A stretch of DNA of 7,409 bases from a virus (lineage: Duplodnaviria > Heunggongvirae > Uroviricota > Caudoviricetes). The position numbers and the translations under genes are program-made. Below are positions 1,189-6,435 of this stretch, piece by piece. The notes under the pieces were generated by a model, which saw nothing but the letters and a program-made list of their open reading frames with translations, had not been told where the DNA came from and did not search any database. Numbering within the stretch: position 1 is the first letter of the stretch; every line of letters begins with the position of its first letter. The DNA is taken from the IMG/VR virus record IMGVR_UViG_2548876944_000011. The stretch is one strand, 5' to 3'.

Positions 1189-1693
1189 ACAGGCTCGTGA
1201 GGCTCTGGATGCCTGGATATGTCGACCAGGAATGACACAGGAGCAGGCGACGATATTAATCACTGAAGCATTCTGGGCTTTGAAAGAGCGCCCGAACATC
1301 GATGTTCAGCGTGTCACATATGAAGGTGGCGCGATTGATCAGCGAGCGCTTGGCGTTAATCGAGTGAAGATATTTGAACGCTGGAAGGCTATCGACACCA
1401 GGGATAAGCGTGAAAAGTTCACGGCGCTAGTGCCTGCAATTATGGAGGCTATCCGGATTAATGATTTCAGGTTGTATCGTGAAATTACTGACGGAAAAAG
1501 CATCACGTGCATGATCGCCGGGTTAAACAAAGAATATGGCGATGTGGTGGAGTCCGGACTGCTTTTTGCTGATCCTGCCGTAGTGGATCGTGAAACTGAC
1601 GAACTTATAGAAAAAGCAATTGCTTTCAAACTTGCGTATCGACAGCAATACCAACAAAAAGCTGGATGGAATTATGAGCCTTCTTTTTGCTGA
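1172..1693 (+). CDS. YdaT-like prophage early protein, 173 aa (family reported as a functional analogue of lambda CII)
   Basis: Track ORF. The ATG overlaps the dicC 3' end by 17 nt, suggesting translational coupling. The central segment WKAIDTRDKREKFTALVPAIMEAI resembles the conserved REK...L.PAI region I recall from Rac YdaT. The family assignment is from memory, not a search. Confidence 0.7.
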   Translation: MKITPEQAREALDAWICRPGMTQEQATILITEAFWALKERPNIDVQRVTYEGGAIDQRALGVNRVKIFERWKAIDTRDKREKFTALVPAIMEAIRINDFRLYREITDGKSITCMIAGLNKEYGDVVESGLLFADPAVVDRETDELIEKAIAFKLAYRQQYQQKAGWNYEPSFC

Positions 1694-2639
1694 ACGCCCA
1701 CTGGTTATAAACACGCAGCTGGCAATGAAAATTGGCTTAAACGAAGCCATTGTTTTGCAACAACTGCACTACTGGTTGAGAGATACCAACTCCGGCATGG
1801 AATGTGATGGTGTTCGCTGGATTTATAACACAACGGAACAATGGCTGGAACAGTTCCCATTCTGGTCAGAGTCAACGTTAAAGCGCGCGTTTGCAAGTCT
1901 GAAAACGCTGGGGCTTTTGCGTTGTGAAAAGCTCAATAAATCAAAGCGCGATATGACCAATTTCTACACGATCAACTATGGGAGCGAGCTTTTAGATGGT
2001 GGCAAATTGAGCGAATCCATCGGTTCAAAATGCGCCGCTCCATCAGGTCAAAATGACACGATGGAAGAGGTCAAAATGAAACGCTCCATTGGTTCAAAAC
2101 GACCCAATGTCATCGGGTCAAAATGGCCTGATGATCTTACAGAGAATACAACAGAGATTACTACAGAGAATAAAAACACTTTTCGTCCTGAAGCTTCGCA
2201 ACCGGACCCGCAGACGACTGAACAGGATTTTTTAACCCGGAACTCCGACGCGGTTGTGTTTAGTGCGAAAAAACGCCAGTGGGGTAGCAGGGAGGATTTG
2301 GCGTGTGCGCAGTGGATCTGGGGGCGGATCGTGGGTCTCTACGAACAGGCAGCCAGTGATGATGGCGAGATCATGCGACCAAAAGAGCCTAACTGGACTG
2401 CCTGGGCCAATGACGTGCGCACAATGCGGATGCTGGATGGCAGAAGCCACAGACAAATTTGCGAAATGTTTGGTCGGGTTCAGCGAGATCCATTCTGGGT
2501 AAAAAACATCATGAGCCCGTCAAAGCTCCGCGAAAAATGGGACGAACTGGTCATCCGCCTGGGACGTTCACCTGTACAGCGTTGTGTTAATCATATTTCT
2601 GAACCGGATACAGAAATTCCGCCTGGTTTCAGAGGATAA
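1674..2639 (+). CDS. phage replication initiator (lambda O-like replisome organizer), about 321 aa
   Basis: Track ORF 1620..2639 begins at a TTG. The first ATG (1674) gives MSLLFAERPLVINTQLAMKIGLNEAIVLQQLHYWL..., a typical N-terminus for this kind of protein. The C-terminal W-rich region (AQWIWGRIV...NWTAWANDVRTM...FWVKNIMSP) resembles the conserved C-domain of such proteins. Iterons lie inside the gene, as in lambda O. Confidence 0.8.
   Translation: MSLLFAERPLVINTQLAMKIGLNEAIVLQQLHYWLRDTNSGMECDGVRWIYNTTEQWLEQFPFWSESTLKRAFASLKTLGLLRCEKLNKSKRDMTNFYTINYGSELLDGGKLSESIGSKCAAPSGQNDTMEEVKMKRSIGSKRPNVIGSKWPDDLTENTTEITTENKNTFRPEASQPDPQTTEQDFLTRNSDAVVFSAKKRQWGSREDLACAQWIWGRIVGLYEQAASDDGEIMRPKEPNWTAWANDVRTMRMLDGRSHRQICEMFGRVQRDPFWVKNIMSPSKLREKWDELVIRLGRSPVQRCVNHISEPDTEIPPGFRG
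2015..2130. repeat. five direct ~23-bp iterons (candidate origin of replication inside the initiator gene)
   Basis: Core GGT(T)CAAAA(T/C)G occurs with TCAAAA starting at 2025, 2048, 2071, 2094 and 2118 (spacing 23, 23, 23, 24 bp). Three units are preceded by TCCAT. At protein level this appears as the repeated IGSK motif. Confidence 0.6.
2139..2174. repeat. three 12-bp direct repeats ACAGAGA(A/T)TAC flanking the iterons
   Basis: ACAGAGA occurs at 2139, 2151 and 2163 in an A-rich stretch immediately 3' of the iterons. This is the position where a DNA-unwinding element sits in lambda-type origins. Confidence 0.45.
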
Positions 2640-2679
2640 GTGTTGATTTCAGGTCATGAGGTAATTTTAAGGGGGACTT

Positions 2680-3102
2680 GTGGCAAAAGTTTTTACACAA
2701 GAAGAGCGGGAAAAAATTAAATGGCAGGTGGTGGAACTCGTGCGCCAGAGCGGCCGTGAGACGTTACGGCAACTGGAAGCTAAAACAGGTGCGACTAGAT
2801 ATCTGATGAGCGTTCTTGCCAGAGAGCTGGTAGCCAGTGGCGATGTATACAACTCCGGCTACGGGTTATTCCCCTCTGAACAGGCGCGTAAGGACTGGCA
2901 AAACGCCCGCAAAAAACTCTCGAGGGCAAAGGTGAAGAAACCTGCTGTGGTTGATCCGGACCTTATCTGGTCATCACCTGACGGAGAAATACGTCGCTAC
3001 GACAGTCGCCTAAACATAATCTGTCGCGAGTGCCGGAAGAGCGAAGTTATGCAGCGCATACTGGCTTTCTATCAGGGTAATTTTCAGGACGTGGCGCAGT
3101 GA
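2680..3102 (+). CDS. hypothetical phage early protein, 140 aa, possibly DNA-binding
   Basis: Track ORF with a GTG start preceded by AAGGGGGA at 4 nt spacing. The segment TLRQLEAKTGATRYLMSVLARELV looks HTH-like. Its stop overlaps the next gene's start in GTGA. No confident family assignment. Confidence 0.65.
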   Translation: MAKVFTQEEREKIKWQVVELVRQSGRETLRQLEAKTGATRYLMSVLARELVASGDVYNSGYGLFPSEQARKDWQNARKKLSRAKVKKPAVVDPDLIWSSPDGEIRRYDSRLNIICRECRKSEVMQRILAFYQGNFQDVAQ

Positions 3103-3455
3103 GTGCACCGGCAACCATTCTTGATATGTGCTGTGGCAGCCGCATGTTCTGGTTCGATAAGTCTGACGAACGGGCGATATTCAGCGATATCAGAAAAGAA
3201 GGATACACATTACGCAATGGGAGACGCTTGATTATCAGCCCTGACATTATCGCAGATTTTCGTGCATTATCATTTGCAGACGCATCTTTTTCGATGGTTG
3301 TATTAGACCCTCCGCATCTTGAGAGTGTTGGTGATAACGCCTGGATGGGAAAGAAATATGGACGGCTGAATAAAGATGCCTGGCGTGATGATTCGCGACA
3401 GAGATTTAAAGAAGCCTTTCGGGTGTTGAGGCCGCACGGCGTTCTGATTTTTTAA
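3099..3455 (+). CDS. class I SAM-dependent methyltransferase-like protein (DPPH motif), 118 aa as read; probably truncated by an in-frame TAA
   Basis: Track ORF with a GTG start coupled to the upstream stop. It has a motif-I-like ILDMCCGSRMF, an acidic residue after the second strand (IFSDI), a catalytic-type tetrapeptide VVLDPPHL, and RVLRPHGVLIF. The fold is incomplete at the TAA (3453..3455). The same frame continues for 29 sense codons (WNETQIPVSQILALTDRKPVICQRTGKKR) to TAA 3543..3545. Confidence 0.6.
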   Translation: MSAPATILDMCCGSRMFWFDKSDERAIFSDIRKEGYTLRNGRRLIISPDIIADFRALSFADASFSMVVLDPPHLESVGDNAWMGKKYGRLNKDAWRDDSRQRFKEAFRVLRPHGVLIF

Positions 3456-3717
3456 TGGAATGAAACGCAAATACCGGTAAGCCAGATTCTGGCACTGACA
3501 GACAGAAAACCTGTTATCTGTCAACGAACAGGGAAAAAACGATAAAACCCACTGGATTATTTTTATGAAAGAGGCATCCAGTGAGTAGGTTCGTAAGGTT
3601 ACAGATACGTATATCTGAATAATTAAATTCAGTTCTGTAAATAAAATTTAATCCTTAACCGGATGGATTTCTGCACCCTCAGAACATCAGGAGGCCGCCC
3701 GAAAGGGCGGTAGTGAA

Positions 3718-3828
3718 ATGCGAAAGCTCAAAATTATTATTGAAACGGGAATAGCTGGTGGAGATTTTGAGGATGTATTCGAAGTGGACGATGACGCAAC
3801 ACCTGAGGAAATTCATGACGGAGCATAA
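3718..3828 (+). CDS. small acidic ORF, 36 aa, uncertain
   Basis: ATG 3718 to TAA 3826, MRKLKIIIETGIAGGDFEDVFEVDDDATPEEIHDGA. It is preceded by a GAAA-tetraloop hairpin (3694..3710) and a distant AGGAGG. The frame continues acidic (EIFFNYCNYSYHEIKDDEEEQSG) for 23 more codons after the TAA. Confidence 0.25.
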   Translation: MRKLKIIIETGIAGGDFEDVFEVDDDATPEEIHDGA

Positions 3829-3877
3829 GAAATTTTCTTTAACTACTGCAATTACTCATACCACGAAATAAAAGACG

Positions 3878-4069
3878 ATGAGGAAGAACAAAGTGGCTGA
3901 TTTTTGTTCAGCTAAATATAACATCAGTTTTGAAGAGCGGGATGAACTATTAATGGACTATGGTGAGTTACGCGGTGGAAGTGCTGCTGATGTCGAATCC
4001 TAGCGTGATGACTATGAAGCGGGAAAAACTCCGGTCGAAGCATATTGTGATGAGTGGGGCGATGAATGA
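3878..4069 (+). pseudogene. small phage ORF interrupted by an in-frame TAG (about 63 codons if read through)
   Basis: ATG 3878 (or GTG 3893 with GAGGAAG upstream) gives ...VADFCSAKYNISFEERDELLMDYGELRGGSAADVES, then TAG 4001..4003, then RDDYEAGKTPVEAYCDEWGDE to TGA 4067..4069. That stop overlaps the next ATG in ATGA. Confidence 0.3.
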
Positions 4070-4353
4070 GCGAGATTAATTATCAGGAAGGGCATGAAAC
4101 GGCGGGGCAAGCAAAACCAGTGGCATGGCGATATCGCTACGTGAAAAAAGGCGTTACGGACTTTCAGGGGAAGTAGTGGTCTGGTGACTGGAAATATGTA
4201 CCGAAAAAAGAGGATTGTAACGACAGGCCGAACTATCAAATTCAGGCCTTATTCACTGCCTCACCAGTCCCAGTTACATCAGAAGAACTGGTTAAAGCTG
4301 TGCACTTTTATGAACAACTAAAACGCGAAAATCCACCAACATCCGGCAACTAG
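4066..4353 (+). pseudogene. small phage ORF interrupted by an in-frame TAG (95 codons if read through)
   Basis: ATG 4066 gives MSEINYQEGHETAGQAKPVAWRYRYVKKGVTDFQGK, then TAG 4174..4176, then WSGDWKYVPKKEDCNDRPNYQIQALFTASPVPVTSEELVKAVHFYEQLKRENPPTSGN to TAG 4351..4353. The start is coupled to the upstream frame by ATGA. Confidence 0.35.
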
Positions 4354-4607
4354 ATTAATGGATTAACTATGTCGGTTAAACGACCAGCCAACTGAAAAAG
4401 CGGAAACCTGATTACAGGTTGCCAGATAAGGCAATGAGCTACCTGGCGCGGAACGGACTGATAAGTATGGGGAATGTTTTACGATGAACCTTTAGACTAA
4501 AGAGTTTGTAACGCTATGTAAGTGATTTTTTCTGGTTTAGATATTTATATGTCCGGCCAAATTGAGGTGTGTTTAAATGTAATTGCACATTGATTGTAGG
4601 AGGAATA

Positions 4608-4787: not shown

Positions 4788-5093
4788 ATACAGCGAACTC
4801 CATTGGTTTAGTTGGATATTTACTGTGCTGGACAAAAACGGTTTGCGGGGAAATCTTAGTTAAGTAGAATGACTGCGGGTGCTTGAGGCTATCTGCCTCG
4901 GGCATGGACACCAACGGCAGATAGAGAAAAGCCCCAGTTAACATTACGCGTCCTGCAAGACGCTTAACATTAATCTGAGGCCAATTTCATGCTAGACACA
5001 TGTAGGTTAGCCTCTTACGTGCCGAAAGGCACGGAGAAGCAGGCTATTGTTAACACCAAGCTGTAATGTCCCCTTTGAACCATTCTAAAATGT

Positions 5094-5121: not shown

Positions 5122-6435
5122 ATGATCAAAGAGACTGTTACGATGAGTCATAAGGAACTCCACCGACTTCAGATTATTCAGGAACAAGCTGCGGCACGCA
5201 TTGGCATTTCTATTCGGCAGGTTAAACGTCTGGTGCAACGGTATAGAAATGAAGGGCCTTCTGGTCTGGTTTCCCACCGACGTGGAAAGCGTCCTAATAA
5301 TTCCTTTTCTACTGAATTCAGAGCAACAGTAATTTCACTCCTCAAAGGCCGTTACGCTGATTTTGGACCTACGTTTGCGTGCGAAAAATTGCGCGAGATA
5401 CACGGTTTATCTTTATCCGTTGAAACTCTCAGAAAGTGGATGATAGAAGAGGGGTTATGGCGTGAACGCCGTCGTAAAATTGCCCGTATATATCAACGCC
5501 GCATGCGACGACCATCTTACGGTGAACTGATCCAGATTGATGGCTCACCTCATGACTGGTTTGAAAATCGAGGCCCCAGATGTACACTGATCGTTTTCAT
5601 TGATGATGCCACCAGTGCGTTGATGGCGTTGCGTTTTGTGCCTGCTGAAACAACCCGGGCTTACATGGAAACCCTCCGGGGTTACCTTAATGATCATGGC
5701 GTACCGCTCGCTCTCTACTCTGATAGACACAGTATATTCAGGGTAAATAACCCAGAGCGGGAAGGTGAGCTGACCCAGTTCACTCGTGCGATAAAGACAC
5801 TGGGCATCGAGCCAATCCATGCCAACAGCCCGCAGGCAAAAGGGCGGGTAGAGCGCGCCAATCAGACACTACAGGACAGGCTGGTCAAAGAAATGCGGCT
5901 TCAGAATATCAGTGATATTGAAACAGCAAATGCATGGTTGCCGACCTTTATTGAAGCCTATAACAACCGGTTCGCTACGTCGCCTCGTACTACTGATAAT
6001 GCTCATCTTGATGTGCACCATTCTGAAGAGGAACTGGGTTATATCTTCAGCCTACAGGCGAAGCGCGTTCTGTCTAAAAATCTCACTTTCCAGTACAAAA
6101 GCAGTGCGTTTCAGGTACGCAGTGAGGGCCGGGGATATCGACTTAGGCATTCGGTTGTTACTGTATGCGAGAACTTTGACGGTGAAATTAACGTTCTGTA
6201 TGACGGGAAAGCGCTGGGCTGGGAAAAGTATGTTGATGGCCCGGAGCCTATACCACCGGATGATGAAAAGAGTGTCCATGAACGAGTGGATAATGCCCGT
6301 ATTGATTTACGCTCAAAATACTATGTTAAACCTAAAGCTGACCATCCCTGGCTTACGCGCCGAACGCAAAGTCATCAGCAAGTTAAGCCCCCGAAGTTAC
6401 CTAAAAAGAAGCCTGATCCCGATAAAAAAGATTGA
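5122..6435 (+). CDS. DDE transposase with an integrase-core (rve-type) fold, 437 aa; IS481-like or ISNCY-like, family not assignable by eye
   Basis: Track ORF. N-terminal HTH region (RIGISIRQVKRLVQRYRNEGPSGLVSHRRGKRP). Candidate catalytic triad in QIDGSPHDW, LALYSDRHSIF and NSPQAKGRVERANQTLQDRL. Basic lysine- and proline-rich C-terminal tail. Confidence 0.85.
   Translation: MIKETVTMSHKELHRLQIIQEQAAARIGISIRQVKRLVQRYRNEGPSGLVSHRRGKRPNNSFSTEFRATVISLLKGRYADFGPTFACEKLREIHGLSLSVETLRKWMIEEGLWRERRRKIARIYQRRMRRPSYGELIQIDGSPHDWFENRGPRCTLIVFIDDATSALMALRFVPAETTRAYMETLRGYLNDHGVPLALYSDRHSIFRVNNPEREGELTQFTRAIKTLGIEPIHANSPQAKGRVERANQTLQDRLVKEMRLQNISDIETANAWLPTFIEAYNNRFATSPRTTDNAHLDVHHSEEELGYIFSLQAKRVLSKNLTFQYKSSAFQVRSEGRGYRLRHSVVTVCENFDGEINVLYDGKALGWEKYVDGPEPIPPDDEKSVHERVDNARIDLRSKYYVKPKADHPWLTRRTQSHQQVKPPKLPKKKPDPDKKD

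Follow-up and report, generated by a model that had tools for sequence, protein, structure and literature searches.

The closest described counterpart of the locus analysed here is the Qin prophage of E. coli K-12, whose pseudogenes (in the region holding ydfX and ydfW/intK) belong to the same element, with the gene order ydfC-ydfB-ydfA-dicA-dicC ... ydfW-flxA-ydfV. In K-12 the whole segment between dicC and ydfW has presumably been lost. More broadly, in cryptic lambdoid prophages the non-essential early-region genes are hit by nonsense mutations, frameshifts, deletions and IS insertion, a picture that our locus shares. In-frame stops have been found most often among phage and transposon genes, and their abundance there has been attributed to pseudogenes (PMC7918605).

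The window, i.e. the whole stretch of 7,409 nucleotides that was analysed, is the early region of Qin, a lambdoid cryptic prophage of E. coli, from dicA/dicC to flxA. When the whole window was used as a query, hundreds of complete genomes proved to contain it at 99.9% identity. At the 99.9%-identical locus ydfC, ydfB, ydfA and dicA lie on the minus strand in the orientation of the window and are followed by dicC, a YdaT-family gene, an O-like replication gene, a DUF977/LygF gene, a gene annotated as 'class I SAM-dependent methyltransferase', a DUF7167 pseudogene, another pseudogene, an ISNCY transposase and ydfW, with flxA and ydfV again on the minus strand. The four interrupted genes that concern us are located between dicA/dicC/ydaT-like/O-like/DUF977 on one side and sok/flxA/ydfV on the other, which is the gene order of Qin. 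In ECOR13 the same element has been deposited as the 48.7-kb prophage PhiR42_1, with integrase, lysis, head and tail modules.

A preliminary description of the window had drawn attention to four successive reading frames, each broken by a single in-frame stop, at 3453, 3826, 4001 and 4174. These coordinates, the frames and the ATGA overlap coupling ORF3 to ORF4 (4066-4069) are all real: TAA 3453-3455 is in frame with GTG 3099, TAA 3826-3828 with ATG 3718, TAG 4001-4003 with both ATG 3878 and GTG 3893, and TAG 4174-4176 with ATG 4066. Homologues were fetched from other E. coli prophages, Stx phages, a plasmid and a phage record labelled Actinobacillus, and the aligned codon was read at each stop; a homologue counted as independent if its identity was below 96% in the compared segments of ~90 nt. 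Based on this comparison we conclude, with a probability of about 0.92, that 3099-4487 comprises four adjacent Qin accessory genes, all inactivated by ordinary, unselected mutation. We infer that their products are non-functional and that the cause is the loss of selection on non-essential phage genes. The features are:

3099..3588, plus strand: pseudogene of a class I SAM-dependent phage DNA methyltransferase, carrying a stop and a frameshift (homologues, phrog_954)
3453..3455, plus strand: stop 1, TAA for AAA (Lys119 of the 157-aa protein), an A-to-T transversion (AAA in 4/4 intact homologues)
3531..3533, plus strand: +1 frameshift, GGG instead of GG (GG in 4/4 intact homologues)
3718..3900, plus strand: pseudogene of a 60-aa DUF7167 protein, ORF2 (Pfam DUF7167, phrog_1997, PGAP)
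3826..3828, plus strand: stop 2, TAA for AAA (Lys37), an A-to-T transversion (AAA in 11/11 independent homologues)
3893..4069, plus strand: pseudogene of a 58-aa phage protein, ORF3 (phrog_519; homologues), with its start changed from ATG to GTG at 3893-3895
4001..4003, plus strand: stop 3, TAG for TGG (Trp37), a G-to-A transition (TGG in 11/11 independent homologues)
4066..4487, plus strand: pseudogene of a 104-171-aa phage protein, ORF4 (phrog_660; alignment to a 171-aa homologue, three-frame translation, PGAP)
4174..4176, plus strand: stop 4, TAG for CAG (Gln37), a C-to-T transition (position variable among intact homologues)

Past each stop the frame still encodes sequence matching the rest of the intact protein, and thus the stops are real interruptions and not chance ends of ORFs; the Pfam and PHROG profile matches of the intact homologues also extend across the stop positions. 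That the frames run on sensibly to a second stop, as had been proposed, holds insofar as the homology continues, but the true ends lie elsewhere, at 3586-3588 in the methyltransferase and at 4485-4487 in ORF4, and for the acidic ORF, i.e. ORF2, the continuation is real while its second stop is in fact TGA 3898-3900. Inactivation by point mutation, one of the explanations offered at the outset, is borne out by intact homologues with a sense codon at every stop position. The expectation that all four stops are transitions from CAA, CAG or TGG is correct only in part: alignment to the homologues gave TGG at stop 3 and CAG in the closest forms at stop 4, but AAA at stops 1 and 2, so that two of the changes are AAA-to-TAA transversions and none started from CAA. 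The decay itself is already known, as PGAP labels these loci 'internal stop' or 'frameshifted; internal stop'.

The intact homologues of the methyltransferase have 157-162 aa and are 84-88% identical to the window copy. One of them matches phrog_954 ('DNA methyltransferase') with E=1.7e-86 over residues 2-157, and Pfam Methyltransf_11 is matched as well. The window copy has kept the SAM-binding motif I (DMCCGS) and the catalytic motif DPPH, whereas its last 39 residues are lost through the stop and the frameshift. The claim that the frames contain no frameshifts thus fails here, owing to the additional G at 3531-3533, and it fails again in ORF4, which carries deletions of 90 bp and 4 bp. Because of this +1 G the C-terminus of the methyltransferase (KTHWIIFMKE...) is found in another frame, leading to TAG 3586-3588; if one G is removed at 3531-3533, ...QRTGKNDKTHWIIFMKE is regained, ending at that codon, and the frame that runs to TAA 3543-3545 is the wrong one for the last ~15 codons. 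PGAP treats the gene as 'frameshifted; internal stop' in some genomes and as a 118-aa protein (WP_001310834.1) in many. A query with the repaired methyltransferase against 5.8 billion proteins found no intact relative closer than 88%, i.e. no recent intact ancestor. The sole 99% match in this protein search is a copy of the decayed haplotype in which stop 1 reads GAA instead of TAA and the frameshift persists. TAA is present at stop 1 in 7/7 near-identical copies and AAA in the four intact homologues, while the metagenome contig behind this match, which is 99.7% identical to the window, has GAA there and still carries the frameshift and stops 2 to 4. The stop codon itself is drifting, which argues against any selection keeping or repairing stop 1.

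ORF2 and ORF3 are free of indels. An intact homologue of ORF2 matches DUF7167 (PF23768) over model positions 1-60 (E=7.9e-15, 55.1 bits at a cut-off of 24.4) and phrog_1997 (E=9e-31); the window copy is broken at codon 37, and PGAP lists it as 'DUF7167 family protein, internal stop'. ORF3 has lost its start codon as well, with GTG in the window and ATG in 11/11 homologous loci of other lineages that were compared, and nine non-synonymous changes are specific to its lineage, two of which, W16R and H17D, affect positions invariant in the homologues compared. An out-of-frame ORF at 3960-4079, annotated in the phage record, and ORFs on the opposite strand were also considered and were rejected, being without homologue support.

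ORF4 carries further damage in its downstream part. Alignment to the 171-aa homologue of strain LH85-a shows that 90 bp are missing at 4340/4341 and 4 bp at 4384/4385, and further stops are present, including TAG 4351-4353. Three-frame translation finds the C-terminal remnant (...LPDKAMSYLARNGLISMGNVLR) in another frame, ending at TGA 4485-4487, and PGAP annotates exactly 4066..4487 as 'frameshifted; internal stop'. An apparent '57-bp insertion', seen on alignment to the 104-aa homologues, was discarded as it is ancestral sequence of the 171-aa form that the shorter homologues have lost. At stop 4 the intact homologues have CAG (three loci, the closest intact forms), CCG (two), CTG or ATG. TAG is found at this position in three further loci (L005, L006 and L022), all with intact ORF2 and ORF3. 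Their ORF4 segment is 96-98% identical to that of the window, their ORF2/ORF3 only 88-90%. As stop 4 is common only to loci this similar in the segment concerned, identity by descent is indicated, and its occurrence in Qin variants with intact ORF2 and ORF3 means that ORF4 died first and that the region is a recombinational mosaic. An origin of the four stops in a single burst is ruled out by the same co-occurrence, and a common mutational signature by the changes themselves (two A-to-T, one G-to-A, one C-to-T).

According to the codon comparison stops 1 to 3 are confined to the near-identical haplotype. Of 5,426 complete E. coli genomes about 480, roughly 9%, carry a haplotype with the same lesions (≥95% identity); ATCC 8739 is one of the strains with a near-identical copy. 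Every lesion is common to the window and the seven near-identical copies that were read; these eight sequences fall into two sub-lineages, differing at 14 of 1,389 positions (1.0%), and as both sub-lineages have all lesions, the lesions predate their split. The inactivation had been thought recent, which is tenable in relative terms only, all lesions being older than the divergence of sub-lineages 1.0% apart.

Taken together, these data suggest a simple course of events. In the early (post-replication) region of Qin four adjacent non-essential accessory genes each received a nonsense codon, by AAA to TAA in two of them and by TGG to TAG or CAG to TAG in the others, and this group of genes also gained the +1 frameshift, the 90-bp and 4-bp deletions and the ATG-to-GTG start change. 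The lesions accrued at different times, ORF4 being hit first, and are fixed and inherited with the prophage.

The preliminary description regarded a run of nonsense changes alone as unusual. The same genes contain a frameshift, two deletions and a start-codon change, and a transposon lies ~560 bp downstream of the ORF4 remnant, so the pattern is not one of pure nonsense. Nor is the number of stops out of the ordinary. Lineage-specific substitutions were defined as positions where the window differs from every intact homologue, in 1,098 aligned coding bases; there are 84 of them, 37 synonymous, 43 non-synonymous and 4 nonsense (4.8%). Random single-base change of the inferred ancestral sequences would yield 4.4-5.0% nonsense, i.e. 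3.7-4.2 stops per 84, an expectation that is on the high side, since selection was acting while much of the divergence built up. In a stricter mixture estimate, which is rough and hand-derived from the substitution counts and the dN/dS baseline, about a quarter of the branch is neutral and about 1.7 stops are expected, so that at least 4 has P about 0.09. In E. coli mutation-accumulation lines small indels are reportedly (Lee et al., 2012) about one tenth as frequent as base substitutions, and the three indels observed are thus about what is expected.

The alternative that survives best, improbable as we consider it, is that the interrupted genes are still used, either by low-level read-through of ORF2 and ORF3 or as functional N-terminal fragments such as the 118-aa methyltransferase piece, which PGAP accepts as a protein (WP_001310834.1). 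The lack of indels in ORF2 and ORF3 would be compatible with this, and so would the low dN/dS towards intact homologues, which is 0.13-0.23 for the window alleles as compared to 0.08-0.22 among the intact homologues themselves. A dN/dS that is still low implies, however, that most of the divergence predates the inactivation and that the neutral phase was short, and divergence from before the inactivation accounts for the low values. When the two sides of the stops are compared, a check that had been proposed with the preliminary description, the lineage-specific non-synonymous:synonymous counts are 33:29 upstream and 10:8 downstream. The ratio is the same, so the N-terminal fragments have enjoyed no more protection than the dead tails. 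The sub-lineages diverged after the stops had arisen, and 11 differences in coding sequence separate them, of which 6 are synonymous and 5 non-synonymous. The share of synonymous changes is somewhat higher than neutrality predicts (P = 0.013-0.074 over the transition biases assumed), with n=11 and recombination possible. The 6:5 ratio is a weak hint against strict neutrality and keeps a small probability of residual function, and recombination with selected alleles could give the same pattern.

Many conserved in-frame stops have been argued to be read through (Belinky et al., PMC7918605), which would favour continued use. Read-through could not, however, repair the frameshifts and deletions of the methyltransferase and ORF4, ORF3 has lost its ATG and has W16R and H17D at positions invariant in the homologues compared, and stop 1 has drifted to GAA in one contig. 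UAA-U and UAA-G are said (Poole, Brown and Tate, 1995) to be efficient terminators in E. coli, which we also count against read-through. None of stops 1 to 4 is conserved in diverged, otherwise intact homologues, as would be typical of programmed recoding, 0/4 are UGA, as recoding with a SECIS element would involve, and the window contains no recoding element, sok, downstream of the four stops, being its sole Rfam match. A related and slightly less probable idea is that ORF2, ORF3 and perhaps the 118-aa methyltransferase fragment are expressed and selected, the stops acting as dampers of expression in a domesticated prophage; if this were true, the stops would mean low-level read-through or truncated peptides rather than the death of the genes.

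Two further explanations had been put forward with the preliminary description, and both are highly improbable. In the first the stops would be relics of a suppressor host, in which an amber or ochre suppressor tRNA allowed conditional expression of the genes. Beyond the presence of TAG and TAA codons nothing speaks for such a history: two ochre and two amber stops are mixed, the stops differ in age and are accompanied by frameshifts, an ARAGORN scan of the window found no tRNA gene, and in about 480 natural isolates, taken from a wide variety of sources, the haplotype is fixed. According to the second, the ORFs are naturally short (118, 36, 36-41 and 36 aa) and what follows them is non-coding, and gene callers do annotate some of them as proteins, e.g. 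WP_001310834.1. This proposal is refuted by the intact homologues, in which sense codons occupy the stop positions and conserved protein continues beyond them; none of the independent homologues ends at any of stops 1 to 3, conservation at the protein level extends over the downstream parts, and the Pfam and PHROG profiles span the full length. Sequencing or assembly errors in this single record can be dismissed, as seven genomes sequenced independently and a phage record show the same bases.

The transposon downstream of ORF4 is worth describing in its own right. It belongs to the IS1202 family and is inserted exactly at the start codon of hokD, with its left end at 5048. The full-length Rfam match to sok covers 4877-5048, and homology to intact hok/sok loci stops at ...GGAGAAGCAGGCTAT (5033-5047), which ends with the AT of the hokD ATG; the end of the element, TGTTAACACC..., begins at the base right after 5047. 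In ECOR13 the same 15 bp are repeated 3,289 bp further on, directly before hokD, and this second repeat is preceded by the sole inverted match to the left end in the 48.7 kb (20/27 bases, the ends being TGT...ACA). The 3,274 bp between the repeats hold an ISEsa1-like (IS1202-family) transposase, flxA, ydfV, relB and relE. The transposase copy of the window lacks 27 bp, in frame, from its N-terminal region, and the 'ydfW' ORF of K-12 corresponds to the last 49 codons of this transposase frame.

The same element is found on Enterobacter IncF plasmids, at 99.4% identity and with a complete transposase of 446 aa. There, too, it is located between the mok/sok leader and the hok ORF, flanked by a different duplication of 14-15 bp, GGAGAAGAAGGCCA(T). 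As the duplications at the homologous site differ, the element has inserted there twice independently; it appears to be an IS1202-family transposon that carries passenger genes and has the hok ribosome-binding site as its target. If the 3.3-kb transposon with relBE, flxA and ydfV were specific for this site, the classical relB-relE-hokD (relF) arrangement would owe its origin to such an insertion. ISEsa1 is listed as 1,609 bp, without detectable target duplication (PMC10132070). No hok insertion of this kind came up in a term search of a recent survey of hok.

Returning to the four genes, inactivation by ordinary mutation makes the locus a case of textbook gene decay in a defective prophage, which by itself matters little. 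It may rather serve as a calibration case: a run that by eye consists of nonsense changes only can hide frameshifts and deletions until intact homologues are aligned, and a low dN/dS across an in-frame stop does not necessarily mean read-through.

Three known systems help to place the locus. Unlike Qin of K-12, the lineage of the window retains the segment between dicC and ydfW in a decayed form, and the head, tail and lysis modules are still complete in the surrounding prophage of ECOR13. Laboratory amber and ochre mutants of phages, e.g. lambda Sam7, resemble the window in having single nonsense codons in otherwise intact phage genes, whereas the stops described here come from natural isolates, are of mixed types and different ages, occur together with indels and have no associated suppressor. 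With the read-through candidates of Belinky et al. 2021 (PMC7918605) the locus shares orthologous stops that are conserved across many genomes, a dN/dS <1 and the mobilome class; in contrast to these candidates, 2/4 of the genes are also frameshifted or deleted, the low dN/dS is inherited from before the inactivation, and one of the stops has drifted to a sense codon without the gene being restored.

The leader comprising sok and mok is split from hokD by a 3.3-kb transposon of the IS1202 family, whose insertion point is exactly the Shine-Dalgarno (SD)/start codon of hokD.

4813-5074: insertion region of the ISEsa1-like (IS1202-family) transposon (3.3 kb), whose left end is at 5048 and whose right end lies beyond the window
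5122-6435: transposase ORF, 437 aa, 98% identical to a 446-aa plasmid copy

The right end is visible in three comparison loci, where the transposon spans 11493-14766 (L023, the ECOR13 prophage PhiR42_1), 1253-4553 (L025) and 1245-4545 (L026). The element has terminal inverted repeats (20/27, TGT...ACA), carries flxA, ydfV and relBE as passenger genes and is flanked at hokD by a 15-bp duplication, GGAGAAGCAGGCTAT. On Enterobacter IncF plasmids the same ISEsa1-like element occupies the homologous position in a different hok locus, and the duplication there is another one, GGAGAAGAAGGCCA(T). As the duplications at these homologous hok sites differ, the insertions are independent of each other, and the element apparently has target specificity for the hok SD/start site. 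Insertion at this site would account for the relB-relE-hokD (relF) arrangement of K-12, which lacks sok/mok. Compared with the plasmid copy, the transposase lacks 27 bp near its N-terminus, an in-frame loss of the residues SINRHITQE. The K-12-style 'ydfW' CDS (6286-6435) is the tail of the same ORF, corresponding to its final 49 codons; PGAP accordingly gives the transposase the label 'incomplete'.

Two Qin variants that share the TAG of ORF4 (L005 and L006) carry an extra 2-bp AA insertion in an A-run (A8 vs A6, equivalent to ~4144-4149 of the window), and in strain 400660 (L021) ORF4 has lost single bases at two places, window positions 4104 and 4150. These separate secondary lesions represent independent, ongoing decay of ORF4. 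At the first in-frame stop, the TAA at 3453 in the methyltransferase pseudogene, an ENA metagenome contig (L024, ERZ28647137; 99.7% identical to the window) has GAA, not TAA, while retaining the +1 G and the stops at 3826, 4001 and 4174; this is either drift of the stop codon in a pseudogene or an assembly error. The methyltransferase region 3099-3455 is annotated inconsistently by PGAP (window vs L003, L019 and L021): in many genomes the 118-aa fragment is an ordinary 'class I SAM-dependent methyltransferase' (WP_001310834.1), whereas in a sub-lineage that is 1% diverged the same gene is a 'frameshifted; internal stop' pseudogene.

Escherichia phage PhiR42_1 (PV340562.1, host ECOR13) is a Qin-type element with these pseudogenes. 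Its record describes a 'complete' phage of 48.7 kb, and the genes include those for integrase, excisionase, lysis, head and tail. Thus, Qin may be much less degraded in some strains than in K-12.

The start region of the DUF7167 gene (ORF2) has the following layout.

3690-3694: GGAGG, the sole good SD sequence of the gene, 23 nt 5' of the ATG
3694-3711: strong predicted hairpin, GCCGCCC-GAAA-GGGCGGT
3718: ATG start codon

The predicted fold of the hairpin region has an energy of -20.2 kcal/mol (z=-2.2), and every aligned homologue keeps both the start codon and the hairpin's 3' arm. If formed, the hairpin would draw the GGAGG close to the ATG. Gene 38 of phage T4 has a split ribosome-binding site, and the SD-hairpin-ATG arrangement of the DUF7167 gene, here a predicted fold, resembles it.
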